NCBI GenBank assembly: GCA_963778545.1
Contig: CAVZUW010000015.1
Location: 115,825-179,824 of the forward strand
From: an uncultured Actinomycetes bacterium
Lineage (GTDB): Bacteria > Actinomycetota > UBA4738 > HRBIN12
Reading direction: 5' to 3'
DNA length: 64,000 bases
Shown: in pieces, positions 3 to 35,066 of the stretch
Position numbering within the stretch: position 1 is the stretch's first letter
Layout: every line of letters starts with the position of its first letter
The notes under the pieces: generated by a model
Databases searched by the model: none
What the model was told of the DNA's origin: nothing
The model's input: only the letters and a program-made list of their open reading frames with translations
Translations under genes and position numbers: made by a program

Positions 3-1015
3 ATGCATCTCGAGGGGCTCCGCTACGACGTCACGCCCGCCGGGATGCACTACCTGTTGATCCACTTCGACGTCCCGGAGGCGGATGAATGGTCGTGGAC
101 GCTCTCGATCGAGGGATCGGTGCGCGACCCGCTCGAACTGTCGATCGCCGACCTCAAGGCGAGGCCCGGGGCCAGCGTGACGACGACGGTGACGATGGAA
201 TGCGCGGGCAACGGTCGGGCCCGGCTCTCACCGCGGCCGATCTCGCAGCCGTGGCTGGGCGAGGCGGTCGGCACCGCCGACGTGGACCGGGACCCCCCTC
301 CGGCCGCTGCTCGAGGAGGCCGGGCCGCTCGACGAGGCGGTGGAGCTCGTGTTCGCCGGTGCCGATCGCGGGGATCCAGAGGGAGATCGAGCACGACTAC
401 GAGCGCAGCCTCCCGATCGCCGACGCGATGCGCGACGAGGTCCTGCTCGCGTACGAGATGAACGGCGCCCCGCTCCCTCCGCAGCACGGGTTCCCGCTCC
501 GCCTGGTCGTTCCCGGCTGGTACGGGATGACGAGCGTCAAATGGCTGACACGCATCACCGCCGTGCCCGAACCGTTCGAGGGCTTCCAGCAGTTGGCCTA
601 TCGGTACCGCCAGGAGCCCGAGGACGACGGGACACCCGTCACGCGGATGGATCCCCGCTCGCTCATGATCCCGCCCGGCATCCCGGACTTCCTGACGCGG
701 AGCCGCATCGTCGATGCAGGACACCACGTCCTGCGCGGCCGTGCATGGTCCGGATGGGGCCCGATCGAGCGGGTCGAGGTGAGCGCGGACGGGGGCTCGA
801 CCTGGACGACCGCGGAGCTCGGCGATGCGGTCTCGCCGCACGCGTGGCGTTCCTGGTCGTTCGACTGGGATGCCCGGCCCGGCAACGCCGAGCTCTGCTG
901 CCGGGCGGCGGACGCGGCGGGCAACGAGCAGCCGCTCGAGCCGTCGTGGAACCTCGGCGGGTTCTCGAACAACTCCGTCCAGCGCGTGCCGGTCGAGGTT
1001 CGCGCGCCCGCGTAA
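3..1015 (+). pseudogene. Sulfite-oxidase-family molybdopterin oxidoreductase; 5' end cut by the window edge, with two +1 frameshifts as sequenced
   Basis: Frame 3 reads ...TVTMECAGNGRARLSPRPISQPWLGEAVGTA. Frame 1 reads WTGTPLRPLLEEAGPLDEAVELVFAGADRG. Frame 2 reads IQREIEHDYERSLPIADAMRDEVLLAYEMNGAPLPPQHGFPLRLVVPGWYGMTSVKWL plus a Moco-dimerisation-like C-terminus. Frame switches lie near 280 and 371. Length is a multiple of 3 after removing 2 nt. Confidence 0.7.
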
Positions 1016-1017
1016 CG

Positions 1018-2211
1018 TCAGAGCAGCGAACGCAGCTCCTCGAAGCAGCGGTCGATGTCCTCCTCGGTGTTGAAGAAGTGCGGGCTGATCCGCAGGCCGT
1101 CGCCCCGGTAGTCGGTGCACACGTCGCGTTCGAGCAGCGCGTGGCAGATCTTGTCCGCCTCGGGGCCGACGCCGACGTTCACGACGCCGCCGCGCGCGGT
1201 CCGGTCCCGCGGCGTCCGCACCGGCAGGCCCTGCTCGTCCGCGCGCGCGATCACGTGGTCGCCGAGCTCGCCCTGGCGCGCCCGGATCCGTTCGGGCGTC
1301 ACCTCGGCGATCACGTCGAGGCCGCCCTGCGCGATGAAGAACACCGGGGCCGGCGGGGTGCCGTGCTCGAAGCGCCGGGCGGTCGGGTGGTACTCGAGGT
1401 GCTGGGTGTCGAACGAGAAGGGGTCGGCCGTCCCGAACCACCCGGTCACCGTCGGCTCGAGCGAGGGGATCAACCCCCGCCGCACGTACAGGAACGCGAG
1501 CCCGGGTCCGCCGCACAGCCACTTCAGGACCCCCGCCGCGTACGCGTCGCAGCCCACGTCGTGCAGGTCGAGCGGCACGATCCCGATCCCGTGGTAGTCG
1601 TCGAGGAAGGAGAGCGCGCCGCGCTCACGAGCGATCCGGCAGATCTCCTTGGCGTCGACGATCGCGCTCGAGCGGTAGAGCACCCGGTTCACCATCACGA
1701 CGGCGGTGCGTTCGTCGATCGCCCGGTCGTACTCCTCGAGCGGGATCGTCAGACCGTCGGGGGAGCGCAGCCACTCGATCTCGACGCCGCGCTTGGCGTG
1801 CGCGAGCCAGACGTGCCCGTCGGTCGGGAAGTCGAGCTCGGACATCACGATCTTGTTGCGTTCGCCGAAGTCCAGCGCCGAGGCGATCGTCGACATCGCG
1901 ATCGAGATGTTGGTCGTGATCGCGAGCTCGTCCGTGTCGCACCCGGCGAGGCGCGCGAACGACGCCTTCAGCGCCCGCATCCGAGGGAAGATGTCCTCGA
2001 ACCACACGTGGTCGGGGGCGCCCTTGGTCGCCCACGCGTCGAGGTACCCGTCGAGGTACCGCCGCGAGCGATCGGACACCGGTCCGAGGGACGCGCTGAT
2101 CAGGTACGCCTTGCGTTCGAGCACCGGGAACTCGGAACGGTAGGACCCGAGGTCGCGGTCAGTCGTCGGGATCCTCCTCGGACCCGCCGCGAGCTCCGAG
2201 ATCGGGAGCAT
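1018..2211 (-). CDS. Class V aminotransferase-fold PLP-dependent enzyme (kynureninase/cysteine-desulfurase-like)
   Basis: 397 aa counted from the internal ATG at 2211 (MLPISELAAG...). The N-terminus FPVLERKAYLISASLGP is typical of the family, and GVLKWLCGGPG looks like the PLP-lysine region. The longer ORF to 2292 would overlap the upstream gene even more. Confidence 0.65.
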   Translation of the reverse strand: MLPISELAAGPRRIPTTDRDLGSYRSEFPVLERKAYLISASLGPVSDRSRRYLDGYLDAWATKGAPDHVWFEDIFPRMRALKASFARLAGCDTDELAITTNISIAMSTIASALDFGERNKIVMSELDFPTDGHVWLAHAKRGVEIEWLRSPDGLTIPLEEYDRAIDERTAVVMVNRVLYRSSAIVDAKEICRIARERGALSFLDDYHGIGIVPLDLHDVGCDAYAAGVLKWLCGGPGLAFLYVRRGLIPSLEPTVTGWFGTADPFSFDTQHLEYHPTARRFEHGTPPAPVFFIAQGGLDVIAEVTPERIRARQGELGDHVIARADEQGLPVRTPRDRTARGGVVNVGVGPEADKICHALLERDVCTDYRGDGLRISPHFFNTEEDIDRCFEELRSLL

Positions 2212-2524: not shown

Positions 2525-2543
2525 CGGGTGCCGCCCGAGATCG

Positions 2544-6874: not shown

Positions 6875-8843
6875 ATGCCCCAGGCCCTCCGATGGAAGCT
6901 GCTGCCGCTGGCCTTCGTGCTCGCTCTGGGCGCGGCGGCCTGCGCCGAACCTCCGACGGCAACGGTCAACCTCGGATCCGGGGTCCGGTTCCTCCCCGAG
7001 GTCGGCGACTCGCTGAACGACGCGGGCCGGTACCCCTCGGTCGTGACGAACCCCGACGGCCTGCCCGTCGTCGCGTACTTCGCGTTCGAGGAGAAGCTCG
7101 AGGCCGGCGAGGTGCCGGTGACCCGACCGGTGGGCTCCCCGTCGATCCCGGGGGTCCTGCTCGCCACCGTGAGCGAGCAAGGGTTCTGGACGCGTGGCGC
7201 CATCGCGATGCAGGCGGAGATCCCCAACGTCTCGATCGCGTTCAACCCGGCGTTCGAGCCGTCGGTCGCCGACCTGACCCCCGAGAACGTGACCGGTCTC
7301 GCGATGGTCGCCGACGGCGATACCTACCACGCGGTCTGGGGCTCGGACGCCGGGCATCTACTACGGGACCGGCTCCCTCGATCCGGCGACCACGACGCAG
7401 GCCGTGGTCACGCAGGTGACGAAGACCCCCGGCTACGGCCTCTCGATCGGTCTCGCCGGTGGTGACCCGGCGATCGCCTTCTACACCTCGACCTCGTCCG
7501 ACGCCACGGTGCAGCTCGCCATGCCCGACGGCGACACGTGGTCGAACGACACGATCGCCGAGGGCGCGGGGTGCGACACGTGCCGGACCGCGGTGATCGG
7601 GGCGGACCCGCCGACGGTGGCCTACTCCGACGGCGGCGCCGGCGTCGAGGTGGCGTCCAACGACGGGGAGAACGGGTTCGTGAGCTTCGAGGTCTCGGCC
7701 ACCGGAGGCCAGGGGCTGTCGGGGGTCGCGATGGACGGGGGTCTCGCGCTGTCGTACTACGACGCCGCGAACGGCCAGGTCACGATCGCCACCCGCACCG
7801 GCGACGGGTCGGTCGACACGGTCGCCGCCGCCGAGGTCCCGGAGGGCAGCGCGGAGGGACCCGGCGCCAGGACCGGGATCGCGCTCGGCTCCGAGGGTTC
7901 GGTCGACGTCACGTGGTGGGACGCGGACGAGGGGGTCCGGTTCGCGACCGGCGACCCGGGGTCGCTGAAGGCCGTCGAAACGGGAACCTCGACGGTGGAC
8001 GGCGCGTTCCCGACGATCACCGTGACCGAGGACGGCTCGGTGACCTACCTCGCGTGGTACGCGACCACCGAGGCCGATCTGCTCGTCGGCGGATACGGCG
8101 ACTTCCAGGATGTGCCGTTCGCCGAGCCCAGCCCCACGCCGACCGGCCCGATCGCCCAACCGTCGTCTCCGACCACGGAATGCACCCCGCTCCTGAACGG
8201 GACGGTCAAGGTGGTTGCGCAAGGCATCGCGTTCACCGAGGGCGACTGCATCGAGGCCGCCGCCGGCGAGTCGTTCTCGATCGAGTTCGACAACCGCGAC
8301 GAGGGCACGCAGCACAACATCGAGATCTTCAGCGGTGAGGAGCCGACGGGGGACACCGTGTTCCAGGGGGACCTCGTCACCGGCCCGAACCAGGTGATCT
8401 TCGATGTCCCGGCCCTCGACGCGGGCACCCACGCGTTCAACTGCGTGGTGCACCCGACGATGGTCGGCAGCGTCGAGGTCTCCGAGGGGGGTGGGGGCGG
8501 CGCCGGAGGCGGCGGCCAAGCCGGTGGCGGTGGGGGCGGCCAGGGCGGCGGTGGAGCAGCGACCACGACCGTGACGGCCTCCGGGATCGCGTTCGATACG
8601 TCGACGATCGACCTGCCGGCGGACGAGGCGAGCACGATCCACTTCGTGAACGAGGACAGCGGGGTCCAGCACAACATCGCGATCTTCCCGAGCGCCGACG
8701 ACCTCGCGAACGCCCTGTTCCGCGGCGACCTGGTGACCGGGCCGGGTGAGGCCGACTACGCCATCGACCCCCTGGAGGCCGGCGAGTACTACTTCCATTG
8801 TGACGTCCACCCGACCATGAACGGAACGGTGAACGTCTCCTAA
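6875..8843 (+). pseudogene. Lipoprotein with a beta-propeller-like repeat region and two C-terminal type-1-copper cupredoxin domains; one +1 frameshift near 7353
   Basis: The signal/lipobox is MPQALRWKLLPLAFVLALGAAAC. About six repeats end in VAYF/IAFY/VAYS/LSYY/VTWW/LAWY. The two cupredoxin ligand sets are HNIEIF...HAFNCVVHPTM and HNIAIF...YFHCDVHPTM, separated by a poly-Gly linker. The frame changes at WGSDAG|IYYGTGS. Confidence 0.7.
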
Positions 8844-8886: not shown

Positions 8887-8892
8887 TACGAT
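8887..8892 (+). promoter_or_regulatory. -10 hexamer TACGAT upstream of uvrC (implies a leaderless start at GTG 8900)
   Basis: The hexamer overlaps ATG 8891. The in-frame GTG at 8900 lies 7 nt after the hexamer. Confidence 0.35.
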
Positions 8893-10768
8893 GGGTCGCG
8901 TGAGTTTCCTGCGACCCGATGCCTCGTCGATCCCCGACAGCCCGGGCGCGTACCTGTTCCGGGACGGCGACGGCCGGGTCGTCTACGTCGGCAAGGCCAG
9001 GTCCCTGCGCAAGCGGCTGGCCAACTACTGGGGACGCGACCTCCACCCCCGGACCGAGGCGATGGTGGCCGCCGCCGCCTCGGTCGAATGGATCATGGCC
9101 TCCACCGAGGTCGACGCCCTCCTGCTCGAGTACAACCTGATCCAGGAGCACCGGCCCCGGTTCAACGTCCGGTACCGCGACGACAAGTCCTACCCCTACC
9201 TCGCGCTGACGGTGGGGGAGCGCTGGCCGCGGGCCCAGGTCCTGCGGGGCGCCAAGCGCAAGAACGTCCGGTACTTCGGGCCGTTCGGGCACGCCTACGC
9301 GATCCGCGAGACCCTCGACGCCCTGACCCGCGTGTTCCCGGTCCGGACCTGCTCGAACTCCTTCTTCGACCAGCGCGCCCGGGCCCGCCGCCCGTGCCTG
9401 TACTACGACATCGGCCGCTGCTCGGGGCCGTGCGTGCCCGGAGCAGACGGGGGTCACCGAGGAGTCGTACCGGGCCGACGTCGATGCGCTCGGCGAGTTC
9501 CTGTCCGGCCACGAGCGCCCGATCATGGAGCGGCTCGAACGCGAGATGGAGGAGGCCGCCCGCCGCCAGGAGTACGAGCTCGCGGCCAAGCACCGTGACC
9601 AGCTCACCGCCGCCAGGCGGGCGCTCGAGAGCCAGGAGATGGTGCTCTCGCAGCCCGACGACCTCGACGTGGTCGGGCTCGCCGAGGACGACCTCGAGGC
9701 GGGGTTCCAGGTCTTCTTCGTCCGCCGAGGCCGGGTCATGGGCCGCAAGGGGTGGGTCGTCGACCGGGTCGAGGACCTCGACCGGGCCGGCCTCGTCGGG
9801 TCGTTCCTGCGCGAGCTGTACATGCAGCGACAGGACGTGCCGCCGAGGATCCTGGTGCCCGAGCTCCCGGCCGACGCCGAGGTGCTCGGGGCGTGGCTCG
9901 CGACCCGGCGGGACGGGCCGGTCCGGTTCGCCGTGCCCGAACGCGGGACCAAGCGCAAGCTGATGGAGACCGTGACCCAGAACGCGACCGAGCAGTTCCG
10001 CCGGCACAAGCTGCGGCGGGCCTCGGACTTCGGCGCCCGGTCCCGGGCCCTGGCCGAGCTCGGCCGGCGTCTCGAGCTCGAGCAGCCTCCGCTGCGGATC
10101 GAGTGCTACGACATCTCGAACCTCGGCCCGACGGACACCGTGGGCTCGATGGTCGTGTTCGAGGACGGCCTGCCCAAGCGGAGCGACTACCGCCGGTTCG
10201 AGATCAAGGGCGTGCCCGGACAGGACGATTTCGCAAGCATGGAGGAGATGCTCCGCCGCAGGCTGGCGCGCCTGGCCAAGGACCGGGAGCCCGGCGAGCG
10301 CCGCCGGTTCGCCTACCCGCCGGCGCTGATCGTGGTCGACGGCGGTCGCGGACAGCTCTCGAGCGCGACGAAGGCGCTCGCCGATGCGGACGTCCACATC
10401 CCGGCGATCGGGCTCGCCAAGCGGCTCGAGGAGGTCTACTTCCCCGACCGGCCCGACCCGCTCGTGATCCCCCGGGGCTCCGAGGCCCTGTTCGTGCTCC
10501 AACACCTGCGGGACGAGGCCCACCGGTTCGCGATCACGTACCACCGAGAGAAGCGCGGGAAGCGCGCGCTGGCCTCGCCGCTCGACGACGTCGCCGGGGT
10601 GGGGCCGTCCAGGAAGAAGGCGTTGCTGAAGCGGTTCGGCTCGGTGGCCCGTCTCGCGCGGGCGAGCGAGGACGAGATCGCCTCGACGCCGGGTGTCGGG
10701 GCCGACCTCGCGCGGGCGATCCACGATCGTCTGACCTCGTCCGAACCGGCCGGGGGGAGGCGCAGCGC

Positions 10769-10772
<4 letters not shown>
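8891..10772 (+). pseudogene. uvrC: Excinuclease ABC subunit C; one +1 frameshift near 9440 as sequenced (start may be GTG 8900)
   Basis: GIY-YIG N-terminus PGAYLFRDGDGRVVYVGKARSLRKRLANY. CSGPCVP is followed after a frame hop by QTGVTEESYRADVDALGEFLSG. The UVR domain (EYELAAKHRDQL), endonuclease domain and C-terminal HhH are present. Length is a multiple of 3 after removing 1 nt. Confidence 0.9.
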
Positions 10773-12848: not shown

Positions 12849-14060
12849 GTGCCCCTGCGAACGCTCGACGACCTCGGTGACCTCGCCGGCCGGCGCGTCT
12901 TCGTCCGGCTCGACCTCAACGTCCCGCTCGAGGACGGGGTCGTCACGGACGACGCGCGCATCCGAGCCAGCCTGCCGACGCTGACCGAGCTGCTCGAGCG
13001 CGGCGCCTCGATCGTCGCCGCCTCGCACCTCGGGCGGCCGAACGGCCGTGTCGATCGAGACGCTCCGGCTCGGCCCGGTCGCCGAGCTGCTCCGCGAGCT
13101 CGCTGGATCGCGTGGTCGAGTACGTCCCGACCGACGGCGTCCTCAGCCCCGAGGTCGAGCAGTCGTGCCAGGCCCTCGCGTTCGAGCCCGGCCGGATCGT
13201 CCTGCTCGAGAACCTGCGGTTCGATCCCGGCGAGGAGGCCAACGAACGGGCGTTCGCGCAGCGGCTCGCCGGCCTGGCCGACCTGTACGTCGACGACGCG
13301 TTCGGCGCGGTGCACCGCGCGCATGCGTCGGTGGTCGCGCTGCCGGAGGTCCACCGGAAGCAGGGCAGGGACACCGTCGCCGGACGTCTGCTCCAAGCGG
13401 GAGGTCGAGGCGCTGTCCCGGTTGGTCGGCGATCCGGCGCGTCCCTACGTCGCCGTGCTCGGCGGGGCCAAGGTCTCGGACAAGCTCGGCACGATCGGCG
13501 CGCTCGTCGAACGCGTCGACGCGCTCCTGATCGGTGGGGCGATGGCGTTCACGTTCCTCGCCGCCGACGGCGGCTCGATCGGGAACAGCCTGGTCGAGCC
13601 CGATCGGTTCGACGAGGTCCGCGCCGCTCGCGCCCGCGCGGACGAGCGCGGCGTCGTGCTGCAACTGCCCGAGGACGTGGTCGCCGCGCCGTCCAAGAGC
13701 CTGGACGCCCCCCGCCACACGGTGCCGAGCGCGCGGGTGCCGGCGGGCGAGCTCGGTCTCGACATCGGTCCGCGGGCGGTGGAGGAGTTCGCGAGGACGA
13801 TCGCCGACGCCAAGACGCATCGTGTGGAACGGCCCGATGGGGGTGTTCGAGCTCGAGCCGTTCAGCGCCGGGACCCGCGGGGTCGCCACGGCGATCGCCG
13901 GCGCGAGCGCCTACTCCGTCGTCGGCGGCGGCGACAGCCTCGCGGCCGTGAAGAGGTACGGGCTGGAGGAGCGGGTTCGACCACCTCTCGACCGGCGGGG
14001 GCGCCTCGCTCGAGTTCCTCGAGGGCCGCGAGCTGCCGGGCATCGAGGTCCTGGAGGTGA
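12849..14060 (+). pseudogene. pgk: Phosphoglycerate kinase; six +1 frameshifts as sequenced
   Basis: Conserved Pgk segments appear in successive frames: [12 protein letters not shown] / [19 protein letters not shown] / VEYVPTDG...[12 protein letters not shown]...[12 protein letters not shown] / [32 protein letters not shown] / [19 protein letters not shown] / [27 protein letters not shown]. Shifts lie near 13048, 13101, 13393, 13818, 13973 and 14057. Removing 6 nt from 1212 gives 402 codons. Confidence 0.9.
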
Positions 14061-14066
14061 CGCCTC

Positions 14067-14837
14067 GTGAGCGGACGCAAGCCGCTCATCGCGGCCAACT
14101 GGAAGATGCACAAGACGCACCTCGAGGCGATCCAGGCCGTGCAGAAGCTCTCCTACCTGCTGGACAAGGACGACGCCGAGCGCGTGGAGGTCGTGATCTG
14201 CCCGGCCGCCACGTCGCTGCGCTCGGTGCAGACGCTGATCGACAGCGACCGGCTCCCGTACGGCCTCGGCGCGCAGGACGTGCACTGGGAGGACGAGGGG
14301 GCGTTCACCGGCGAGGTCTCGCCCCCGATGCTCGTGGCGCTCAAGGTCGGCTACGTGATCGTCGGGCATTCGGAGCGCCGGGCGATGTTCGGCGAGACCG
14401 ACGAGACCGTGAACCGGAAGGTCCGTGCGGTGTTCGCGCACGGCATGACGCCGATCCTGTGCGTCGGCGAGACGCTGAAGGAGCGCGACGTCGGCGCCAC
14501 CGAGGATCGCGTGACCGCGCAGGTCCGAGCCGACCTCGCGGGCGTCCCGGCGTCCGACGCCGGGAAGCTGGTCGTCGCCTACGAGCCGATCTGGGCGATC
14601 GGCACCGGCCGCAACGCCGAGCCCTCCGACGCCGGGCAGGTGATCGGGTTGATCCGGCAGACGCTCGCGGAGCTGTACGACGGCGAGCTCGCGCAGGCGG
14701 TCCGGATCCAGTACGGGGGGAGCGTGAAGGCCGGGAACATCCGCGACTTCATGGCGCACCCCGAGATCGACGGGGCGCTCGTGGGCGGCGCGAGCCTGGA
14801 TCCCGAGGAGCTCGCCCTGATCGTCAAGTACCGGTGA
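14067..14837 (+). CDS. tpiA: Triosephosphate isomerase
   Basis: GTG start. Motifs are [32 protein letters not shown] and YGGSVK. Confidence 0.95.
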
Positions 14838-14841
14838 CGCG

Positions 14842-16105
14842 GTGAACCGGCTCCTGTACGTCTGCCTCGACGGCCTGGCCGACGACCCGATCCCGGAGCT
14901 CGACGGCCGCACGCCGCTGGAGGCGGCCGAGACGCCGTTCCTCGACGCGCTTGCACGGCAAGGAAGCACGGGGACGGTGACGACCGTGGGCGAGGGCATC
15001 GCGCCCGAGTCGGACATCGCGGTGTTCGCGATCTTGGGCTACGACCCGCGCGAGGAGCACCCCGGGCGAGGGGTCGTGGAGGCGCTCGGCGTCGGGATGG
15101 ACTTCCGCGACGGCGATCTCGCCTACCGCGTGAACTTCGCGACGGCGGAGTGGCCGAGGATCGTCGACCGCCGCGTCGGGCGCGATCTCACCTCCGACGA
15201 GGCGCGAGCGCTCGCCGACGAGGTGAACGAGCGAGCTCTCGCTCCCGGACGCCACGTTCGAGCTGCGCTCCACGGTGGAGCATCGGGGCGTCCTGGTGAT
15301 CCGCGCGGACGAGGGAGCGCTCTCGGCCGAGGTGTCGAACACCGACCCCGCGTACCGCAAGGACGGGCACCTCGGCGTGGCGCTCGAGACGTTCGAGCCC
15401 GAGGTGGTCCGGTGCGAACCGCTCGAGGACACGCCCGAGGCCCGACGCGCCGCCGAGCTCACCAACGCGTTCGTCGAGGGCGCCGCGAAGATCCTCGACG
15501 CCTCCGAGGTCAACGCGGCGCGGCGTCGGGCGGGCAAGCTGCCGGGGAACCTGATCCTGACGCGGGACGGCGGCGACCGCCGGCCGTCGCTGCAGCCGAT
15601 CGCCGAGCGGTTCGGGCCGTCGTGGGGGTGCTTCGTCGAGATGCCCGTGGAGCGGGGGATCGCCTTGATCCTGGGCATGGAGCCCGTGGACGCCCCGCGG
15701 CTGCTGGCCGAGGAGGACTACGCGACCTGGGCCCGCCTGGCGATCGAGGCGCTCGAGGGCTTCGACGCGCTGTACATCCACATCAAGGGTCCGGACGTGC
15801 CGGCCCACGACGGCCGCGCGGAGGACAAGCGGGACATCATCTCGCTGATCGACCGCGCGTTCTTCGGCGAGCTCCTCCCGGGGATCGACCCGGCCCGGAC
15901 GATCGTGGCCGTGACCGCGGACCACGCCACCTCGTGCGTCCGCAAGGCCCACACGGCGGAGCCCGTCCCCTGCTGGTGACCGGGCGGGCCGGTTCGTTCG
16001 GACGGAACCGAGGCGTTCGGCGAGCGTGCGTGCGCCGTCGGGAAGCTCGGTGCGCTGAAAGGCATCGAGATCCTCCCGCGGATCTCGGCGCTGCTCCGGG
16101 GCTGA
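14842..16105 (+). pseudogene. apgM: Archaeal-type cofactor-independent phosphoglycerate mutase (ApgM family); +1 frameshift near 15238 and a compensating -1/+1 pair near 15972/15995
   Basis: LLYVCLDGLADDP, VEHRGVLVIRADEG, YIHIKGPDVPAHDG and VTADHATS. HTAEPVP is followed by LLVTGRAG in another frame, then VRSDGTEAFGERAC...ILPRISALLRG. An in-frame TGA at 15977 lies inside the short shifted stretch. Confidence 0.8.
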
Positions 16106-16219: not shown

Positions 16220-17261
16220 ATGCGCCGTTCCCGATCCGGGAAGGGGTACAGGCGCACCAGATGGCACGAGCCCACGTGGAGCACGCGCTCACCGACTGGG
16301 GGTCCCGACGGGCCCATCGATCCGGAAGCGACCAGCGTCGAGGTCTCCCAGCAGGTCGTCGGACGCTCTCCATGGGAGCTGTTCTGGCGCCGCTTCCGCA
16401 GGGACAAGTTCGCGCTCGGCGGCGCGTTCATCGTGATCATCATGTTCGCGATCGCGCTCCTGTCGCCCGTGCTCGCGAGCCTCACGCACGGACCCGAACG
16501 AGGTGCACCTGGACCCGCTCGACTCGTTCGGGATCCCGACGGGTCCGCAGACCGGGTTCCCGTTCGGCGTCGACACGGCCGGTCGCGACCTGATGGTCCG
16601 CGTCGCCTACGGCGCCCGCACGTCCCTGTTCATCGCGTTCTTCGCGACCGGGATCGCCACCGTGATCGGCGTGACCCTGGGGATGCTCGCCGGCTTCTAC
16701 CGCGGCAAGATCGACACCGTGATCTCCAGGACGATCGACATCGTCCTGTCCCTGCCGGTGCTGCTGCTGGCGCTCGGGCTCGTCTCGGCGTGCGGGCTCT
16801 CGCCCAACGGCTGTCTCGGCGGGATCATCAAGCCGGGACTGTTGCTCGTCAGCTACGTGATCGGCCTGTTCAGCTGGCCCTACATCGCCCGTATCGTGCG
16901 CGGGCAGGTGCTGTCCCTGCGCGAGAAGGAGTTCATCGAGTCGGCCCGTTCGCTGGGCTCGACCAACCGCCGGATCATGTTCCGCGAGGTGCTCCCGAAC
17001 GTGGCCGCGCCGATCATCGTCTACACGACGCTGATCATCCCGAACAACATCCTGTTCGAGGCGGCCCTGTCGTTCCTGGGGATCGGCGTCCCGCAGGAGA
17101 CGCCCTCCTGGGGGCGGCAGCTGTCCGACGCGGGCTCGATCTTCACGGTGGCCTGGTGGATGATGCTGTTCCCCGGGCTGTTCCTGTTCTTCACCACGCT
17201 CGCCTTCAACCTGGTCGGGGACGGGCTCCGAGACGCCCTCGATCCCAGGACGGGCGGCTGA
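16220..17261 (+). pseudogene. Peptide ABC transporter permease (OppC/DppC-like); +1 frameshift near 16494; start uncertain (ATG 16220, or ATG 16261 with a further shift)
   Basis: SPWELFWRRFRRDKFALGGAFIVIIMF...LTHGP is followed after a frame hop by NEVHLDPLDSFGIP...GRDLMVRVAYGARTSL. The EAA-like region SARSLGSTNRRIMFREVLPN is present. Confidence 0.75.
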
Positions 17262-17390: not shown

Positions 17391-19275
17391 GTGAGGCGAT
17401 ATCTCAGCGTACTGGCGCTCGTCGCGGTACTCGGTCTGGTCGCCGCGGCATGCGGCGGCGACGACGGTGGTGGAACCGGGGCTTCCGGTGCCACGTCGGC
17501 GACCGGCGCGAGCGGCGAGCTCCAGCCTGGCGGCACCGTCGAGCTCGCGATGCTCGGCGACGTGAGTGCCGCGTTCGACCCGCAGAAGGAGTACTACTCG
17601 GTGACCTGGGAGTGGTACCGGTGCTGCTTGCTCCGGACGCTCCTGTCGTACAACGGTAGGACCACTGCCGAGGGCGGCGCCGACCTGCAGCCCGACATCG
17701 CGAGCGCGTTGCCGGAGATCTCGTCGGACGGCCTGACCTACACGTTCACGCTGAAGAGCGGCGTGGCGTATGGGGATCCGTTCGGGGACGTCAGCGTCAC
17801 GTCCGGGGACATCGTTCGCGCGCTCGAGCGCGAGTCCGACCCCGACGCGTCGGTGGGCGGCTACAACTTCTACTACAACGTCATCGACGGGTTCGCCGAC
17901 TTCGGCGCCGGGCAAGGCCGATTCGATCAAGGGCCTCGAGACGCCGGACGACAGCACCCTCGTGGTCACGCTGAGCGAGCCGGCCGGCTACCTGCCGTAC
18001 CTGTTCGCGATGGCCGCATCCGCTCCGATCCCGCCGAACGGCGACGCGCCGCTCGGAGCGGCGGAGGGGCACACGCGGGACTACGGCCGCTTCCTGGTGG
18101 CCACGGGGCCGTACCAGTTCCTCGGTTCGGAGAACATGGACTTCTCGGTGCCGGCCGACGAGCAGACGCCGGTCGCCGGGTACGAGCCCGGCAAGTCGAT
18201 CCAGCTCGTGCGCAACCCGAACTACGACCCGGCCACGGACGGGCTCCGTCCCGCCTACCCGGACGGGTTCAACATCTCGATCGGCGGCGACAACAACGAC
18301 CTGTACAACAAGGTGCAGGCCGGCGAGCTCGACGGCGTGGTCGACGGCATCGTGCCGCCGAATGTGCTGCGTTCGTACTCGACCGACCCGACGCTGCAGC
18401 CGCTGCTGCACATCAACCCGTCGGACGCGGTTCGGTACATCTCGTTCAACCTCGCGGAACCACCGTTCGACGACATCCACATCCGGAAGGCGGTCAACCT
18501 CGCGTTGGACAAGGCTGGGATGCGGACGTTCCGAGGCGGTGAGTCCGTCGGTGAGATCGCGGGTCACATCATGGTGAACTCGCTCGAGGACAACCTCCTC
18601 GCCGACTACGACCCCTACGCCACGCCGAACTCGGCGGGTGACGTCACGGCTGCTCAGGCGGAGATCGCCCAGTCGAAGTACGACACCGACGGCGATGGCG
18701 TGTGTGACGCGCCGGAGTGTTCGAACATCCTGGCTGCGACCGACGAGGCCGATCCCTACCCGGACCAGGCTGCGCTGATCCAGCAGAACATGGAGCCGCT
18801 CGGTCTGACGTTCGACGTGAAGTCCTTCGAGCGGACCACGATGTACGCCAAGTGCAACGAGCCCGAGGCGCACGTCGCGATCTGCCTGGCTCCCGCGTGG
18901 GGCAAGGACTTCCCGGACGGGTACACGTTCGCGGACCCGCTGTTCGGTTCGGCCGCCATCTTCCCGAGCTGCTGCAACTACCAGCTCCTCGGGGCGAGCG
19001 CGGACCTGCTGTCGAAGGCCGGCTACACCATCACGGATGTCCCGTCGGTCGACGACCAGATCAAGACCGCGAACCAGCAGACGGGTGACGCCCGGTTCCA
19101 GGGATGGGCGGACCTCGACACGACGCTGATGGAAGACGTGGTTCCATGGGCGCCGTACCTGTTCGACAACAACGTCGACATCACGTCGGCGCGGATCATC
19201 AACTACTCGTTCGACCAGTTCGCCGGCCTGGCCGCGTACGACCAGTACGCGATCTCGCCCGACGCCCAGTCATAG
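17391..19275 (+). pseudogene. Peptide ABC transporter substrate-binding lipoprotein (family 5); +1 frameshift near 17912
   Basis: An SD (AAGGAGAGGGG) precedes the start. The lipobox is LGLVAAAC. The frame hops at FADFGAG|KADSIKGLETPDDSTLVVTL. It has the typical length and layout of a family-5 SBP. Confidence 0.8.
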
Positions 19276-22738: not shown

Positions 22739-22825
22739 GTCGGAGTGGCGGAACTTGGTAGACGCGCTAGGTTGAGGGCCTAGTGACCTTCACGGGTCGT
22801 GGGGGTTCAAATCCCCCCTCCGACA
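22739..22825 (+). tRNA. tRNA-Leu (anticodon GAG), long variable arm, CCA not encoded
   Basis: Acceptor stem gtcggag/ctccgac plus discriminator a. D-arm gcggaacttggtagacgc. Anticodon stem ctagg/cctag with loop ttGAGgg. T-arm ggggg-ttcaaat-ccccc. Confidence 0.85.
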
Positions 22826-23019
22826 CTCAACTACCAGCAGAAACGCAACGAGCCCCGGAAGCCACTTCGGCCTCCGGGGCTTCACATTGCTGTCGTCTTC
22901 GCAGGTTAGAAGGACCTAAGGCCGACGGAGTTGACAATGTAGGTCATCTGGGGGAGGTTTCGGTTCCGTTCAACGGGTCGCGGAGGTCGTCGCGGCGCCC
23001 CCTCGAGGAGGAATCGCCG

Positions 23020-25263
23020 ATGAGAAGCTCCTGGGACCGCCGCCGATCGCTCAGCACCAAGATCCGTGTCGTCGCTACGGCGGCCGCCCTCGTCATACTT
23101 GCGGCCACCGCTGCGATCGCGGCTCCGGGCGTCACACCGTCCTCCGTGGAGACGACGCTCGCGGCCGGCGGATCGACGGTCGTCCCGAAGTCGGTCGAGA
23201 CGCCCACCATCTCGCCGCGTCCCGACATCATCTTCCTCGCCGACACGACGGGCTCGATGGGAGCCGCGATCGCCAACGTCAAGAGCCAGATCGGCAACAT
23301 CATCAGTCAGGTCCGGACGTCGCAGCCGGAGGCGCAGTTCGGCGCGGCGCAGTACAAGGACGAGGGTGACGTCTTCGTCTACCAGCTCGACGCAGCGCTC
23401 GGGAGCAGCGATGCCGCGGTGACCAGCGGCGTGAATTCGTGGGCGGCATCAGGCGGTGGCGATACACCCGAAGGTCAGATCTCTGCGCTTTACCACCTCG
23501 CGACCGACTCGAACGTCGGCTGGCGCGATGGCGCCAGCCACATCATCGTTCAGTTCGGGGACGCGCCCGGCCACGACCCCAGCGAGACGCGCACCCTGGC
23601 GCAGGTGATCGGACTGTTCACGGGCTCGCTCGACGTCCGCTACCTCGGGATCGACGTCGCTGCCTTGGACTCGACGGGTCAGGCGACCGCGCTCGCCAAC
23701 GAGACCGGTGGACTGGTCCTGCCGGCGAGCGGCGATGTCTCCGATGCGATCCTCGACGGGCTCCAGAGCATCGACGCGACCGTCACACCGACCACCAGCG
23801 TCGATACCTGTGACCCCGCGCTCACGATCTCGTGGGCCCCGCCGCAGGCCACGGTCGAGTCCGGCAGCACAGCGCTGTTCGACGAGACGATCGCCGTCTC
23901 TCCCGGCGCCACGCCCGGAGCCACCCTCACCTGCGAGGTCACCTTCCTCGTGAACGGTGGGTCCGACGCGGACTTCGTGGAGACGAACACGATCCACGTC
24001 GAGGGCAGTGGGCCGGGCGCGCCCACACTCGAGCAGGCGCTCGCCGGCAACCACGAGGTCGGACTCCGCTGGTCAGCGCCAGAGGGCGATGGTCCGATCA
24101 CGAAGTACACGGTGTACGCCGACCCCTGCCCGCCGGCGAACGGCGAAGGGCCATGCATCGTGCTCGACAACGTGTCGCCGAACCCGAACTCGGGGAGCAC
24201 GTTCAACTACGTCATCGGAGGACTCACCAACGGGGTGACGTACACGTTCACCGTGACGGCCTCGAACGGCGAGGCCGAGGGTCCTCCCTCGAACGAGCTC
24301 TCCGCAACCCCGACGGCCTCGGCGGACACCGACACCATCGGGGCCAATGGGAGGGGCACGGTCGACACGGGCTTCGCCGGCGGCGCGAACTCGAGCGGCC
24401 CCAGTTGTACGGATCCGTCGTCGCCCAACTGCAAGAACATCGTGGCCCGATACTCCCTTGTCGATCGGAAGAACGTCGGAGCGGTGATCGGCCTCGCCTC
24501 GGTCCCCAATGAACAGACGCCCGGCGGTCCGATCGCGTGCCTAGAGTTCATGTTCGCGATCAACAGGGTCGCTGCATCGCCTGACTGCGAGCCCGTCGCG
24601 GGCAAGGCCCTCCTGTCGATCTACCCGACCAATGTGACGACCCTGGCGAGACCGCACTTCGCCTTCGAGCAGGACGACGCAACCGTGACGACGATGGCGT
24701 TCGGAGCGCCCTGCTTGCAGCTGGTGACCAACGCGAACGGGACCCCCAAGGTCGCGACGAACGGCGACCCGATCTGCAAGAGTCCGAACTTCCCGAGCGT
24801 TTTTGGTCCGAGTCCCATCAAGACGAACATCTGCCCGGACGGCATCGGCTGGACGCCGACGAAGCCCTGCGCCCACGTGTACTACAAGGTCGAGAGGATC
24901 GACGGCTACGACCTCTCTCCCGCCGATTGCGCGGGCACGTGGCCGAACTGCACGTGGGGGACGCTGGCCAACCCGAAGGCGAGGCGGCCAGTGCAGTGCA
25001 CCTCCGGATCGACGTGTGGGAAAGAGGTCATCATCGGCTCATCGGTCGCGGCAGGCATCAAGCTGGCTTCGGGCCAATACGCCGTCCGGCCATGGTGCCA
25101 GGGTCCCCAACCCGGCGACGATGTCGTGGCTCCGTTCATCAAGTGGCTCCCGTGCGATCTTCTCGTCGTGTGGCTCAACGGCGTGAAGTCGACCAGCGTC
25201 CACTTCCGCGACGTGGTGTGGACGGACCTTGAGGTGAACGACCCAGGAGGGGCACGGCATTAA
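23020..25263 (+). CDS. Secreted VWA - fibronectin type III - Cys-rich C-terminal domain protein
   Basis: An SD (GAGGAGGA) precedes the start. The signal peptide is RVVATAAALVILAATAAIAAPG. The VWA MIDAS site is IIFLADTTGSMG, with GGGDTPEG and FGDAPGHD. The FN3 domain is EVGLRWSAPEGDGPITKYTVYADP...GVTYTFTVTASNGEAEGPPS. The last ~310 aa carry 14 Cys and no motif I recognise. Confidence 0.75.
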   Translation: MRSSWDRRRSLSTKIRVVATAAALVILAATAAIAAPGVTPSSVETTLAAGGSTVVPKSVETPTISPRPDIIFLADTTGSMGAAIANVKSQIGNIISQVRTSQPEAQFGAAQYKDEGDVFVYQLDAALGSSDAAVTSGVNSWAASGGGDTPEGQISALYHLATDSNVGWRDGASHIIVQFGDAPGHDPSETRTLAQVIGLFTGSLDVRYLGIDVAALDSTGQATALANETGGLVLPASGDVSDAILDGLQSIDATVTPTTSVDTCDPALTISWAPPQATVESGSTALFDETIAVSPGATPGATLTCEVTFLVNGGSDADFVETNTIHVEGSGPGAPTLEQALAGNHEVGLRWSAPEGDGPITKYTVYADPCPPANGEGPCIVLDNVSPNPNSGSTFNYVIGGLTNGVTYTFTVTASNGEAEGPPSNELSATPTASADTDTIGANGRGTVDTGFAGGANSSGPSCTDPSSPNCKNIVARYSLVDRKNVGAVIGLASVPNEQTPGGPIACLEFMFAINRVAASPDCEPVAGKALLSIYPTNVTTLARPHFAFEQDDATVTTMAFGAPCLQLVTNANGTPKVATNGDPICKSPNFPSVFGPSPIKTNICPDGIGWTPTKPCAHVYYKVERIDGYDLSPADCAGTWPNCTWGTLANPKARRPVQCTSGSTCGKEVIIGSSVAAGIKLASGQYAVRPWCQGPQPGDDVVAPFIKWLPCDLLVVWLNGVKSTSVHFRDVVWTDLEVNDPGGARH

Positions 25264-25491
25264 GCCCCGAACTGGGGCCTCGGATGATCGACCGGCCGGC
25301 CTGCGAGAAGGATGGCGCCGACTCCGCTTCGCAACGCGCGCGCACAGACGTTAGCTCCAGAATTCGCCGATCCGGTCGGCCCGCTCGAGGTCGGCTCTCC
25401 ACCGCCCGGCTCGCCGTGCGGTGCGGGCTCTCGGCGCGCCTCACGCAGCACCCCGACGAGGACAGCCCCGAGGGTGTGCAGAGTTCGGTCC

Positions 25492-26169
25492 TTACACCAA
25501 CGCCACGATGATCCGCTCCAGCAGGACGAACCCGAACGCCCCGACCACGCCGACGGCGGCCACGCCGAGGAGCGCGTTCAGTCGCCGGCCACGCTCCTTC
25601 ACGAACACCCACGCCAGCACGACGCCGCCGACGACGAGCGCTGCGGCCACGCCAACGTCGATCAGGCGATAGGGCTCGGCCCCGAAGTTCGTCCTCCAGA
25701 CCCTGCGGGTGTACAGCAGGAACAGCCCCTCCGCCACGAGCATCGCCCCGGGCAGGATGACTGCGACGAGCGGCGGGTGCTCCCGGCGCGTCGAGATCGC
25801 CGCACCGCACGCGCCCACGACGGGTCCGGCGACGAGCGCCACCACCGTCCACACGACCTTCAGCTCGCCGACGGCGTAGGCGCGGACTCCGGCGCCGGCG
25901 TAGTACGTCGCGACGCCCACGACGAGCGCGACCGCGCCGGCGAGCGCGCCTTGCCTCGGCGACGTCGCCCGGTACCCGACGACGAAAGCCGCGAGCGCCC
26001 ACGGCGCCGCGATGCTCCCCAGGAGCGTGAACAGCCGACCGGGCAGGGTCCCGTCCGCGAGCAATGAGAGGACACCGAGCGCGACCCCAACGACGACCGC
26101 GACAACGAGCACCCCTCGCCGCCTCGGGATCGGCGGGTCCTCCTTGCGTTCCGTCGTCCCGACCGTCAT
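25492..26169 (-). CDS. Hypothetical integral membrane protein (about 6 TM)
   Basis: 225 aa counted from the internal ATG at 26169 (MTVGTTERKEDPPIPRRRGVLVVAVVVG...). The upstream part of the longer ORF is Arg/Pro-rich junk. A TAGGCT hexamer lies 10 nt upstream. Confidence 0.6.
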   Translation of the reverse strand: MTVGTTERKEDPPIPRRRGVLVVAVVVGVALGVLSLLADGTLPGRLFTLLGSIAAPWALAAFVVGYRATSPRQGALAGAVALVVGVATYYAGAGVRAYAVGELKVVWTVVALVAGPVVGACGAAISTRREHPPLVAVILPGAMLVAEGLFLLYTRRVWRTNFGAEPYRLIDVGVAAALVVGGVVLAWVFVKERGRRLNALLGVAAVGVVGAFGFVLLERIIVALV

Positions 26170-26337
26170 CGCGCTTCCGAGCCTAACGCCCGCCAAGTGA
26201 CCGGGAGAGCTCATTCCGCCTGACGCAGCATCCCGACCAGCACCGGCCCGCAGCGGTCGGTGGCGGTCAGGCGCCGGCACGGTGGATGACCGTAGCCTCA
26301 TCGAGTGGCCAGAGCCTCGATCCGAAGGAGGGATCCG

Positions 26338-26895
26338 ATGGCACAGGAGCGAGCACCCGAGCGCGTACAGTCGCTGGTGGGCGAGGAGTCGGAGACGACC
26401 CCTTGGGAGATGGCACAAGAACGTCTTGCCGATCCTGAGCACGAGAGAACGAGCTGGCTTGCGACGACGCGACCGGACGGTCGGCCACACCTCATGCCCC
26501 TGATCGCCTTCTGGATCGACGGTGCGTTGCACATCGTCGTGGGGGAGGGAACTCGAAAGGCACGCAACCTCTCTGCGGACAGTCGCTGTGTCGTCGCCAC
26601 GACGAGCACGACGCTCCCATCTCTCGACATCGTCGTCGAGGGTCGAGCCGATCCGGTCATCGAGGAAGACGCGGTCCGACGCCTTGCGGGGACCCTCCGC
26701 GCGAACGGCTGGCCGCTCGAGGCCAAAGGCGACAAGGTCTACGGTCCGAACGCTCCAACGGCCGGCCCGCCGCCGTACACGATCTTCCGGATCGTCACGT
26801 CGAAGGTGTTCGGCCTTCCGGGCATGTACGGGATGGACCAGTTCGATCCGGCAGAACTACCCCGACCGACCCGCTGGGACTTCGGTAGCGCCTGA
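26338..26895 (+). CDS. Pyridoxamine 5'-phosphate oxidase-like FMN/F420-binding split-barrel protein
   Basis: An SD (AAGGAGGG) precedes the start. WLATTRPDGRPHLMPLIAFWIDGALHIVVGEGTRKARNL is typical of the PNPOx-like family. Confidence 0.7.
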   Translation: MAQERAPERVQSLVGEESETTPWEMAQERLADPEHERTSWLATTRPDGRPHLMPLIAFWIDGALHIVVGEGTRKARNLSADSRCVVATTSTTLPSLDIVVEGRADPVIEEDAVRRLAGTLRANGWPLEAKGDKVYGPNAPTAGPPPYTIFRIVTSKVFGLPGMYGMDQFDPAELPRPTRWDFGSA

Positions 26896-26981
26896 CCTCG
26901 ATCTCGGCGTGAATGAGTCGCCGAGAGCCAACGTGGACTTCGCAACATCCCGATCAGCAGGCCCGCAGGCTCTCGTTCGGG

Positions 26982-30562: not shown

Positions 30563-32055
30563 CCGAGCACCCGGAAGGGCGCGGACCCCCGGCACCGGTA
30601 CGAGTCGTCGAGGCACAGCCGAACCTCGTAGCGACCGGCTCGCAGCGGCCACGGCGCGGAGCCGCGCGCGCCGGGCCCGATCGGCAGGCTCCCGTCGATG
30701 CGAGCCTCGGTGTATCGCCACGTCAGGTAGGGGTCCCCTTTCGCCGAGTGGCCGGCGCGGAAGACGGCCAGCCAGTCGAACTGGTTGCCCGGCGCGAACG
30801 CCCAGCTCACCTCGAGCCGCTGGTCGCCTTCGAGCGTGGGGTCGGCGACGGTGAGCTCGGGGAGCTGATCATCGGCGATCAGCACCACGGTGTCCCGCGA
30901 CAGCTCGGTGTCCGTCGCGTCCAGCAGGACGACGTCGTAGGCGCCCTGCTCCAGCTGGCGTCGTGTCGAACGCCACGGTCCCGTCCGGGGCCGAGCCGGT
31001 CGGGAGATCCGCGAGCGGCGTCGTCGAACCCGAGGCGGTCAGGATCACGTGGTCGCCCGGATCCTTCGGCGCGGAACCGGGCGCGGAGCGGCAGTCCGAG
31101 CCGGGCGCTCTCGCCTTCGGCCACGACCGAGACCGGCATCGGCGCCGGCGTGACGGTGAACGACGAGGCGACGGCGCGGTGGTCGGAGGGCCAGGGGCGG
31201 ATCGCGAGGTCCGCGTTCGCGCGCGACTCGCCGATGACCCGGGTCGCGTTCGTCTCGACCGGACCCGCGGCCCAGACGAAGTCGATCCGGTCGAACACCT
31301 CCCACGGGTACACGTACGGAGCCGGGTAGCCCGCGGTCCACGTGAACCCGGGGTCCGTGACCGGATCGGGATACACCTCGCGGTACGAATCCCGGAAGCC
31401 GGCCTCCTCCATCGCGAGCGAGACCGGCCAACGCATCGTGTACGGAAGCCCGCGCGCGCGAACCGCGGCGGAGGTCCAGTCGCGGTGGGAGGGGGCGTTG
31501 AAGTCGCCGGTGAAGAACGTCGGCACGCCGGCCGAGAGCAACGGCTCGAGCGCCGAGAGGTGGTCGCGGATCTGGTCAAGGCGCGTGCGCCGTTCCTGCG
31601 CCATGGCCTCGGCGCGGCCGAACCCGCGGTTCACGATCCGGTAGGGCGTGTACGGGCAGCAGGTGAGGTGCGTGTTCGCGATCGCCGCCACCTCGCCCGG
31701 CGCGAGCAGCAGGTAGGCCCAATCGCCGTTCGAGCCCGAGGGCTCCAGGATCGGGAACCTCGAGACCAGGTGCATCCGCGGCGAGGCGTGGAACCCGAGC
31801 GCCTTCGCGATCCTTCGGGTGCGCGCGTACGGCTCCTGGAGCCCGACGACGTCGGCGCCCGCCTCGCGGATCGCCCGGACGACCTCGTCGAGCCCGTGGG
31901 TGACGGTGGCGCCGTACCAGATGTTGAAGGTCATCACGGTGAGATCGACCGGTTGGAGCGCGGTCTGCCCCGACGCTCCCGAGGACGGCCACGACCGGCC
32001 CCATCGCCAGGGCGAGGCCCACCGCGCCCGCGCACAGCCTTCGTCTGCCCACCAT
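30559..32055 (-). pseudogene. Secreted endonuclease/exonuclease/phosphatase (EEP) family protein with C-terminal beta-sandwich-like extensions; three +1 frameshifts as sequenced
   Basis: The signal peptide MVGRRRLCAGAVGLALAMGPVVAVLGS is in one frame. TALQPVDLTVMTFNIWYG...GDFNAPSHRDW...PSDHRAV is in the next. PKDPGDHVILTASG... and QLEQGAYDVVLLDATD...RYEVRLCLDD are in two further frames. Removing 3 nt from 1497 gives 498 codons. Confidence 0.7.
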
Positions 32056-32070: not shown

Positions 32071-32087
32071 GTCCTGGGGTAGGTCGC

Positions 32088-32093
32088 TATGCT
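32088..32093 (+). promoter_or_regulatory. Candidate -10 hexamer TATGCT for the amidohydrolase/demethylase gene string
   Basis: It lies 47 nt upstream of ATG 32141. The leader contains the GGGAGAGGAACGAGG SD region. Confidence 0.3.
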
Positions 32094-32140
32094 CTGCGCG
32101 CTCCGGCGTCCGACAGCACCGATCGGGAGAGGAACGAGGC

Positions 32141-33804
32141 ATGGCTCCGAACGGCACCGTCGACCTCGCGTTCGTCAACGGGCGCGTCGCCACGATGGAC
32201 GCCGCGCGGCGCTGGGCCGGCGCGGTCGCGGTCTCGCAGGGGCAGATCGTCGCGGTCGGGACCGACGGCGATGTGGGCGAGCTGATCGGCTCGGAGACCG
32301 AGGTGGTGGATCTCGCCGGGAGGCTGCTCGTGCCGGGGTTCCAGGATGCGCACGTCCACCCGCCGTCGAGTGGCCTCGAGATGCTGCGCTGCAACCTCTC
32401 CGAGGCCTACGACGCGCGCGAGTACGAGCGGATCGTCTCCGAGTACGCGTCGGCGAACCCGGAGGAACCGTGGGTCGTCGGCGGCGGGTGGTCGATGGAC
32501 ATCTTCCCGGGCGGCAACCCGCCGAAGGACGTCCTCGATCGTGTGGTGCCGGATCGGCCGGTGTTCCTGATGAGCCGGGACGGTCACAGCGCATGGGTGA
32601 ACTCCCGAGCACTCGAGATCGCAGGCGTGACGCGCGACACGCCCGACCCGGCGGACGGGTGGATCGTCCGGGACGCCGCGGGCGAACCCGCGGGCGCCGT
32701 GCACGAGGGCGCGTTCGTCCTGCGTCGAGCGGCACGTCCCCGAGGCGACGCCGTCGGATTGGGTCGACGGGCTCCTCGCCGCGCAGCGCCACCTGCATGC
32801 GCTCGGGATCACGGCGTGGCAGGACGCGATCGTCGGCGGCAGCTACCCGACCCTCGAGGCGTACCGGCAGGTCGCCGCGTCCGGGGAGCTCACCGCGCGG
32901 GTCGTGGGCGCGCTGTGGTGGGACCGGTACCGGGGGATCGAGCAGGTCCAGGACCTGGTCGCCGCGCGGGAGCGGGGCCGGGTCGGGCGGTTCGCGGCCA
33001 CGACGGTCAAGATCATGCAGGACGGCGTGATCGAGAACTTCACCGCCGCCGTCCTCGAGCCCTACCTGGACGCCGAGGGCCGGCTCACCGACAACCGGGG
33101 GAAGTCGTTCGTCGAGGCCGAGGAGCTGAAGACGGCCGTCACCCGACTGGACGCCGAGGGGTTCCAGGTGCACATCCACGCGATCGGGGAGCGCGCGGTC
33201 CGGGAGGCGCTCGATGCGTTCGAGTCGGCTCGCGCGGCGAACGGCTCGAACGACCATCGCCACCACATCGCACACATCCAGGTCGTGCACCCGGACGACG
33301 TCCCACGCTTCCGCGAGCTCGGCGTGGTCGCGAACGCCCAACCGTTGTGGGCGGTGAACGAGGGGCAGATGCTCCACCTCACGGTCCCGTTCCTGGGCCC
33401 GGAACGCTCGTCCTGGCAGTACCCGTTCGCGAGCCTCGTGCGTTCGGGGGCGGTGCTCGCGATGGGGAGCGACTGGTCGGTCTCGAGCGCGAACCCGCTG
33501 TGGGAGATGCACGTCGCCGTGAATCGCACCGCCCCGGACGCGTACGAGTACGGCGGCGGGACCGGCGAGCCGTTCCTGCCCCACGAACGCATCGACCTGC
33601 CGACCGCGCTCGCCGGGTTCACGATCAACAGCGCGTACGTGAACCACCTGGACCACCTCACCGGCTCGATCGAGGTCGGGAAACGGGCTGACCTCGCGGT
33701 CCTGGACCGGGACGTGTTCGCGAACCCCGTCGAGGAGATCGCCGACGCCTCCGTCGTGCTCACGTTCGTCGACGGCGAGCGCGTGTTCGACGGGCCGCGC
33801 GCTG
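32141..33804 (+). pseudogene. Metal-dependent amidohydrolase (YtcJ / amidohydrolase-3 family); +1 frameshift near 32723 and probably another just before the TGA at 33802
   Basis: LLVPGFQDAHVHP, FLMSRDGHSAWVNS, and after a frame hop VERHVPEATPSDW...KIMQDGVIENFTA...VHIHAIGERAV...GSDWSV...GKRADLAVLD. The sequenced frame has no stop until 34349, so the 3' end is inferred. Confidence 0.7.
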
Positions 33805-33909
33805 ACCAGCGGTCATGGGGGCTCGTTGCCAGGCCGGAAGGCCGGACGCACGATAGCCGCGGCCCCGACCGGGCCGAACGCACCCATCCGAGCCGAGGAG
33901 GTTTCCGTC

Positions 33910-35066
33910 ATGGCGTTCGACATGAGCCAGGTACAGCGCGGGGCGCGCAACCGCCGCACGCCGTACCACGAGGCGGCACAGAAGCACGACCCGAAGGGCT
34001 ACACCGTCTACAACCACATGTACTTCCCGATCCGGTTCGACTCGTTCGAGGCCGAGTTCGACACCCTCCTCAACGGGGTGACGCTGTGGGACGTCGCGGT
34101 CGAACGCTGCCTCGAGATCGGCGGCCCCGACGGGTTCCGGTTCGCCCAGCTGCTCACGCCGCGCGACCTGTCGACGTGCGCCGTCGGCCAGGCCAAGTAC
34201 GTCCTGATCTGCGACAGCGACGGCGGCATCATCAACGACCCGGTCATGACGCGGATGGACGAGAACACCTTCTGGTTCGCGCTCGCCTCCTCGGACGCGC
34301 TGCTGTTCGCGCGCGGCCTGAGGAACGCATACCCGGGACCTGGACGTGACGATCCGGGAGGCGGACGTCGCACCGCTCCAGGTCCAGGGGCCGAAGTCGA
34401 AGGACCTGATGGCCAAGCTCGATCGGCCCCGAGATCCTCGACCTGCGCTACTACTTCTGGACCGAGTCGAAGATCGCCGGCGCGCCGGTGGTGATCACGC
34501 GTACCGGCTGGACCTCCGAGGTCGGCTACGAGGTGTACCTCACCGACACGACCAAGGGCGTCGAGGTCTACGAGGCGATCATGGAGGCGGGGGACGAGTT
34601 CGGCGATCCGTCCCGACCGGCCCGAGCGACATCAGGCGGATCGAGGGCGCGATCTTCAACTGGGGCGCGGACATGACCTACGAGAACAACCCGATCGAGA
34701 TGGGTCTCGACCGCCTGATCGACTGGGACCTCGCGGACGATGCGAGTCATCTCGATGGCGGCCCTCCGCTCGATCCAGGAGCACGGCGTGCGCCGCCGGA
34801 TCAACGGCGTGGAGATGGACGGGGATCCGTTCCCGGAGCTCAACAACCTCAAGTGGCCGATCGTCGACGGGGGACAGGAGATCGGCAAGGTGACCTCGGC
34901 GATCTACTCGCCCAGGCTCGAGCGCAACATCGGGTTCGCGTGGCTCCCGGTCGAGCGCTCGACGCTCGGAGAGCGCGTCACGGTCGAGACCGAGTGGGGT
35001 GCCAGGACGGGGACCGTGGTCGAGATGCCGTTCGTCGATCCGAGCAAGCAGATCCCGGTCTCCTAG
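33910..35066 (+). pseudogene. GcvT/DmdA-family THF-dependent aminomethyl/methyl-transferase, paralog 1; five +1 frameshifts as sequenced
   Basis: An SD (GAGGAGG) precedes the start. Conserved segments are YTVYNHMYFP, TLWDVAVERCLEIGGPDGFRFAQLLTPRDLSTC, then (frame hops) DLDVTIREADVAPLQVQGPKS, GPEILDLRYYFW...VITRTGWTSEVGYEV, PTGPSDIRRIEGAIFNWGADM, and VISMAALRS...IYSPRLERNIGFAW. Removing 5 nt from 1157 gives 384 codons. Confidence 0.75.

Follow-up and report, generated by a model that had tools for sequence, protein, structure and literature searches.

The stretch of DNA analysed here (the window; 64,000 nucleotides, G000:C15:115825-179824) belongs to the genome G000 of an uncultured Actinomycetes bacterium, a 3.0-Mb assembly of 19 contigs that is 84% complete and has a GC content of approximately 70%. 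In its first 35 kb lies a series of genes whose reading frames are interrupted by additional bases; all of them are on the forward strand, save the EEP-domain gene, which is on the reverse strand. The gene labelled sulfite-oxidase-like in a first-pass annotation (3..1015) has single extra bases at 281 and 373, both absent from the four relatives covering this place (4/4) and visible as frame hops in tblastn. The gene for a lipoprotein with a C-terminal cupredoxin domain (PF13473; 6892..8843) has one at 7350, where five of five relatives are one nucleotide shorter, and uvrC (8891..10772), the sole full-length copy found, has one at 9436, where the window reads GTGC and the relatives GTC or GTG. 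The most heavily affected gene is pgk (12849..14070), also the sole copy found, with single extra bases at 13054, 13095, 13395, 13818, and 13968 and two at 14059-14062. The gene of the apgM-type phosphoglycerate mutase (14842..16105) has extra bases at 15232 and 15985 and lacks one base in a C run at 15967. A non-coding extra base at 16228 lies upstream of the OppC-like permease gene (16261..17261), which itself has one each at 16296 and 16492, and the gene of an oligopeptide-type substrate-binding protein (17391..19275) has one at 17913 relative to five of five relatives. In the EEP-domain gene (PF03372; 30559..32132, the start being approximate) extra bases are found at 31986, 31061, and 30959, with G003, in which the gene is one open frame, as the single comparator. 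The amidohydrolase 3 gene (32141..33805) has one at 32723 and an ambiguous 3' end near 33793-33802, and the DmdA/GcvT-like gene 1 (33910..35066) has five, at 34338, 34422, 34605, 34608, and 34745, relative to four of four relatives.

Further downstream, pafB and pafC (50852..52777, forward strand) are read as a single open reading frame of 641 amino acids with WYL, WCX, and HTH_PafC domains, which passes through two extra bases at 51777-51780. Pup ligases and a proteasomal ATPase are encoded in the window in addition to PafC, a combination suggestive of an actinobacterium. A Peptidase M50-family gene (44531-45733), situated between a Pup-ligase-family gene and the proteasome region, is missing at the same place in the genomes G003, G007, G012, and G002. 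A tRNA-Leu(GAG) gene (22739-22826) is followed by approximately 4 kb (to 26970) that do not align to G003, which has approximately 12 kb of other DNA there. This segment (22739-26970) encodes a VWA plus fn3 protein (22783-25263), contains a PNPOx-like gene, and is likely a tRNA-linked variable island. Because the region around the ftsH tail (near 63787) is variable, this gene end was left out of the count of shifts.

The uvrC-apgM region of G000 was matched in twelve genomes of the same genus, the closest being G003 with 94% identity; none of the results depends on the unpublished genome G017. The whole window was aligned to five relatives and the individual sites to up to ten, and for pgk the comparison was based on 10 genomes, 21 metagenome loci, and tblastn of the genome itself. 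Neither the genomes of the same genus nor the metagenome contigs have the insertions. For example, when metagenome contigs were scanned with a pattern permitting one or two bases at 13818, one base was found in 21/21 matches and two bases in none. Among the covering loci (21 from metagenomes and 11 from genomes), 31/31 are one nucleotide shorter than the window at 13818, 21/22 at 13054, 26/28 at 13395, 25/30 at 13968, and 17/23 at 13095. It should be noted that the five exceptions at 13095 that are equal in length between narrow anchors include four that are one nucleotide shorter in wider windows; the fifth is L095. At 14059-14062, 15 of 28 covering loci are two nucleotides shorter and none has the length of the window; pgk of the relatives ends at a TGA overlapping the tpiA start (14068-70). 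At this stop/start overlap of pgk and tpiA a duplication-like insert of 23–24 nucleotides is present in 10/28 loci (L092-L109, L003, L006), several relatives carrying it being 88–90% identical.

Short-read (Logan) contigs of four studies were also compared. These represent related strains rather than the source sample, the best runs containing 35% of words. The extra base is absent in 10 of the 12 comparisons listed; among these, the whole depth lacks it at 13054, 13968, and 16296, part of the depth at 13095 and 13818, and only one of four runs at 7350 and 15230. Short-read depth that remains without a gap at the listed place may reflect an alternative placement of the gap.

The first-pass annotation, made from the letters of the window alone, had listed 25 shift events. 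The comparison with relatives recovers 23 of them, namely 22 single extra bases and the missing base at 15967, within approximately 20 nucleotides of where they had been put. It had taken 24 of the 25 to be single insertions, which does not hold for the sixth event in pgk with its two extra bases (14059-14062). A further single insertion had been placed just before 33802. There the window is 21 nucleotides shorter than three relatives between 33793 and 33805 and their stop codon is gone, so that an additional base concealing a new stop at 33803-33805 and a truly altered (deleted) end would fit the alignment equally well. The list was also not complete, since the extra bases at 16228 and 16296 had been overlooked. 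The statement that all extra bases that could be pinned down are G or C is correct only insofar as one of the two equally good deletions is always G or C; the alternative deletion is A or T at 13054, 13395, 31061, 34422, and 34745. The genes uvrA, gap, and tpiA are free of shifts as described, whereas the claim that there are none between 35.2 and 63.7 kb fails at 51777-51780, where the two extra bases private to the window take out the pafB stop.

Neither are the events confined to the first 35 kb, as had been thought; these are only part of one dense patch. In 267 kb of comparable coding DNA of contig C15, 76 insertions of one base, 8 of two, and 2 of four bases are private to G000, as are 6 deletions of one base, insertions thus exceeding deletions by approximately 12 to 1 (G002, with 78% identity and many indels from alignment noise, was left out of the ratio of single insertions to single deletions). 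The events are dense at contig positions of approximately 111–151 kb, which includes the first 35 kb of the window, and 289–302 kb. The latter, outside the window, is the densest patch of the contig and spans pilus assembly genes, aroE, alaS, and aspS. That the uneven distribution, with pgk hit six times and the genes next to it clean, calls for an explanation had rightly been pointed out: for 84 events on the contig the variance-to-mean ratio per 10 kb is 4.19, as compared with a null mean of 1.21, and none of 5000 shuffles reaches it.

For the whole genome we used a caller that does not require a reference and of which 50/65 calls were true and 51/98 known events were recovered; in the window its calls at 20684 and 38763 were regarded as false, there being no indel relative to relatives. 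It returned 454 single insertions versus 81 other calls in G000, the single insertions being found on 16 of the 19 contigs at approximately 15 calls per 100 kb. The same caller found 7.4, 9.6, and 8.9 single insertions per 100 kb in G003, G007, and G002, respectively, which consist of 9–10 contigs, and only 4 in 510 kb of six genomes of 70–430 contigs. The excess of single insertions thus tracks the type of assembly and not the lineage, the genomes with few contigs appearing, from their contig counts only, to be long-read assemblies. The private insertions of G003 are at other places than those of G000 (e.g., at the equivalent of 16.5–21.8 kb of the window), and dense private patches of single insertions are also seen in G007:C5 (equivalent to 204–212 kb of C15) and in G003:C1 (equivalent to 78–82 and 132–138 kb of C15), likewise away from those of G000.

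The apparent fusion of pafB and pafC deserves separate mention because natural PafBC fusions are known (PMC6789036). In 21/21 loci from 20 genomes of the genus the pafB stop is kept and the two genes are separate. At 51777-51780 the string of the window overlays the codons GCG and GAG, which are found in G003 and G007. Judged from these alignments, the fusion in the window is most likely the product of the same consensus artefact, resembling a real natural fusion.

That the frameshifts exist in the sequence as deposited and yet are an artefact of its assembly is very nearly certain, and the artefact probably has its source in merged alleles of different strains. The consensus of a genome with few contigs, presumably assembled from long reads, would have been drawn from reads of at least two close strains. 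Where these strains differ by a single nucleotide polymorphism (SNP) and are near parity in abundance, the consensus step might sometimes write both alleles in series, so that a difference of one base would yield one extra base and a difference of two bases two. Since the SNPs between strains in a genome of 70% GC would mostly be C/G at codon position 3, the extra bases would mostly be G or C; they would leave the peptide whole on either side, fall outside long homopolymers, and gather where the strains were collapsed. The predominance of single insertions, their G/C bias, and their patchiness are thus likely due to both alleles of a SNP having been written one after the other. The bias in base composition is further explained by the SNPs themselves: of the 9977 SNPs that distinguish the coding DNA of G000 from that of G003, 4707 are C/G. 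The concentration of six hits in pgk, with the adjoining genes clean, fits patches of two collapsed strains.

Many sites do resemble two overlaid codons, for example GTGC at 9436 (GTC and GTG), CCCG at 16492 (CCC and CCG), CTGC at 32723 (CTG and CTC), GGGC at 17913 (GGG and GGC), ACGC at 13818 (ACG and ACC), and GATC at 13054 (GTC and GAC). At the end of pgk the string of the window includes two natural variants as subsequences (that of L102 and that of L099 and G005). At 13395 the second allele is absent from every covering locus. For a quantitative comparison 66 of 79 events could be classified, the other 13 being without anchors, and G003 was excluded as reference. A synonymous pair, defined by the removal of either of two adjacent bases yielding synonymous codons, was present in 44 of the 66, a C/G pair in 29, and both alleles among relatives in 17; 37 were non-homopolymer. 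In simulations the proportions for these four measures in the same order were 77, 39, 17, and 55% when real SNPs were merged, 41, 17, 7, and 47% with random bases, 35, 28, 8, and 38% with random G or C, and 43, 21, 8, and 6% with base duplication. The log-likelihoods were −122, −137, −143, and −201, respectively. The merged-allele model is therefore the best by 14 log units, and the data do not depart from it on any of the four measures (p 0.06–0.9); the 22 events of 66 without a synonymous pair compare with approximately 23% expected from it. In this test the indels lie at polymorphic columns and follow the spectrum of the SNPs. Synonymous pairs are also found in 23/39 events of G003, 29/43 of G007, and 33/49 of G002.

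With a toy likelihood consensus applied to a mixture of two strains, both alleles were written in 7 of 21 settings, both dropped in 6, and neither occurred in 8. No merged alleles were obtained in the first four settings tried, and mergers always went along with deletions being likelier than insertions and with substitutions being rare. The toy consensus thus demonstrates a possible route, which need not be the actual one.

An artefact of another kind would be plain insertion errors from low coverage or base calling in a single strain, the patches then being coverage troughs. Poorly polished long-read metagenome-assembled genomes (MAGs) often keep uncorrected indels (PMC9426551), clustering and confinement to genomes with few contigs agree with such errors, and some events, such as the missing base in the C run at 15967, resemble them. 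Indeed, a minority of the events, including this one, are probably ordinary errors. For the bulk of the events we consider this explanation unlikely. Read errors are blind to codon position, whereas the synonymous pairs significantly exceed the random proportion (p 9e-5), and both alleles occur in relatives more often than the 7% expected (p 7e-6). The first-pass annotation had proposed to count the sequence contexts of the indels, and this count speaks against errors of homopolymer length: 37 of the 66 events cannot be homopolymer extensions, only 2 of 66 are in runs of four or more, and the duplication model is worse by 78 log units. Low coverage by itself leaves the preference for synonymous third positions unexplained.

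Consensus or base-calling error had already been favoured at first pass, and this is borne out by the insertions being private, by single-copy aminoacyl-tRNA synthetases being affected, by the absence of relaxed selection, and by the restriction to genomes with few contigs. A true recent inactivation in the G000 strain, either by pseudogenisation or by a mutator biased toward insertions, had been left possible and is not supported; we regard it as very improbable. Insertions private to G000 are what is expected of young mutations, and dispensable genes (the DmdA-like gene 1, which has paralogs, and the EEP-domain gene) could bear a few true lesions. The 53 shifted open frames that were scanned include several housekeeping genes. 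In ileS, thrS, tyrS, aspS, carA, pyrC, aroA, and trpB frame hops are present, and for none of them was a second copy found at the thresholds used (pheT and alaS were left out of the broken genes, tblastn spanning each in one piece). The proposed search for second intact copies gave none for pgk and for uvrC only a partial homolog of 35% (tblastn). With the genome 84% complete, second copies could be unassembled, but it is not plausible that those of four tRNA synthetases and pgk all fall in the missing part. The dN/dS relative to G003 is 0.141 in 36 shifted genes and 0.129 in 197 clean genes (per-gene p 0.15), and pN/pS is slightly but not significantly raised in the former (0.157, as against 0.134 in the latter). 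The shifted genes contain one in-frame stop in 14,542 codons, located in the cupredoxin gene. The relaxed purifying selection and the stops expected of pseudogene decay were thus not found, although very young lesions would show neither, and the deletion bias was not found either (76 single insertions vs. 6 single deletions). Slippage mutators would act in base runs, whereas the insertion bias of 76:6 lies outside homopolymers, and the signature goes with contig count across the genus. Less probable still, and hardly to be entertained, is that the cell copes with truly present extra bases, either bypassing them through programmed frameshifting or taking them out through RNA editing. The conservation of the peptide on either side of each shift would agree with this, but not one site is common to any relative, even at 94% identity, the set of G003 being a different one; no common slippery motif is recognisable in the 67 contexts listed, and 13818 is a single base in all metagenome matches.

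Indels arising from collapsed haplotypes are an already known class of error, and the frameshifts described here are almost certainly assembly errors and no new biology. Korlach et al. (2017) reported indels where haplotypes merged, the data not being shown (PMC5632298), Cosentino et al. (2021) traced indel errors to nearby allelic variants (PMC8445201), and a preprint on myloasm connects strain heterogeneity with polishing errors (PMC12424758). Leftover frameshifts in long-read assemblies have been described repeatedly (PMC9426551; PMC9262707; proovframe, 10.1101/2021.08.23.457338; VGP preprint, 10.1101/2020.05.22.110833). The collapsed haplotypes of PMC5632298 and PMC8445201 are those of diploid eukaryotes, whereas here they would be those of strains in a metagenome, and the passages concerned do not state that the two alleles follow one another at codon position 3, as specified here. 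In the mainly open literature, supplements aside, we found no description of this pattern in MAGs, which suggests at most that it has received little notice. The truncation of genes by frameshifts in long-read MAGs (of the IDEEL/POA90 type) is usually ascribed to homopolymer error and low coverage (PMC9262707), which differs from the predominantly non-homopolymer insertions in G000. With bacterial pseudogene decay the present case shares frameshifts in genes that are otherwise recognisable; unlike there, we see no deletion bias, an unrelaxed dN/dS, almost no stops, and essential genes among those affected.

For the organism, pgk, uvrC, and the other shifted genes are most likely intact. A true loss of pgk and four tRNA synthetases would be remarkable, and the chance of it is very slight. 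Split genes, missing stops, and fusions in G000 and its relatives with few contigs should be distrusted. It may be, and this we put forward tentatively, that merged alleles constitute a systematic and little-described class of error in long-read MAGs serving as species representatives, amounting to hundreds of extra bases per genome, each preserving the two alleles of a SNP within the sample, and recognisable by the codon pattern alone. If so, merged alleles could be used as a marker of strain mixture that requires no reads, and they would be behind a share of what public databases list as apparent pseudogenes and fused genes.
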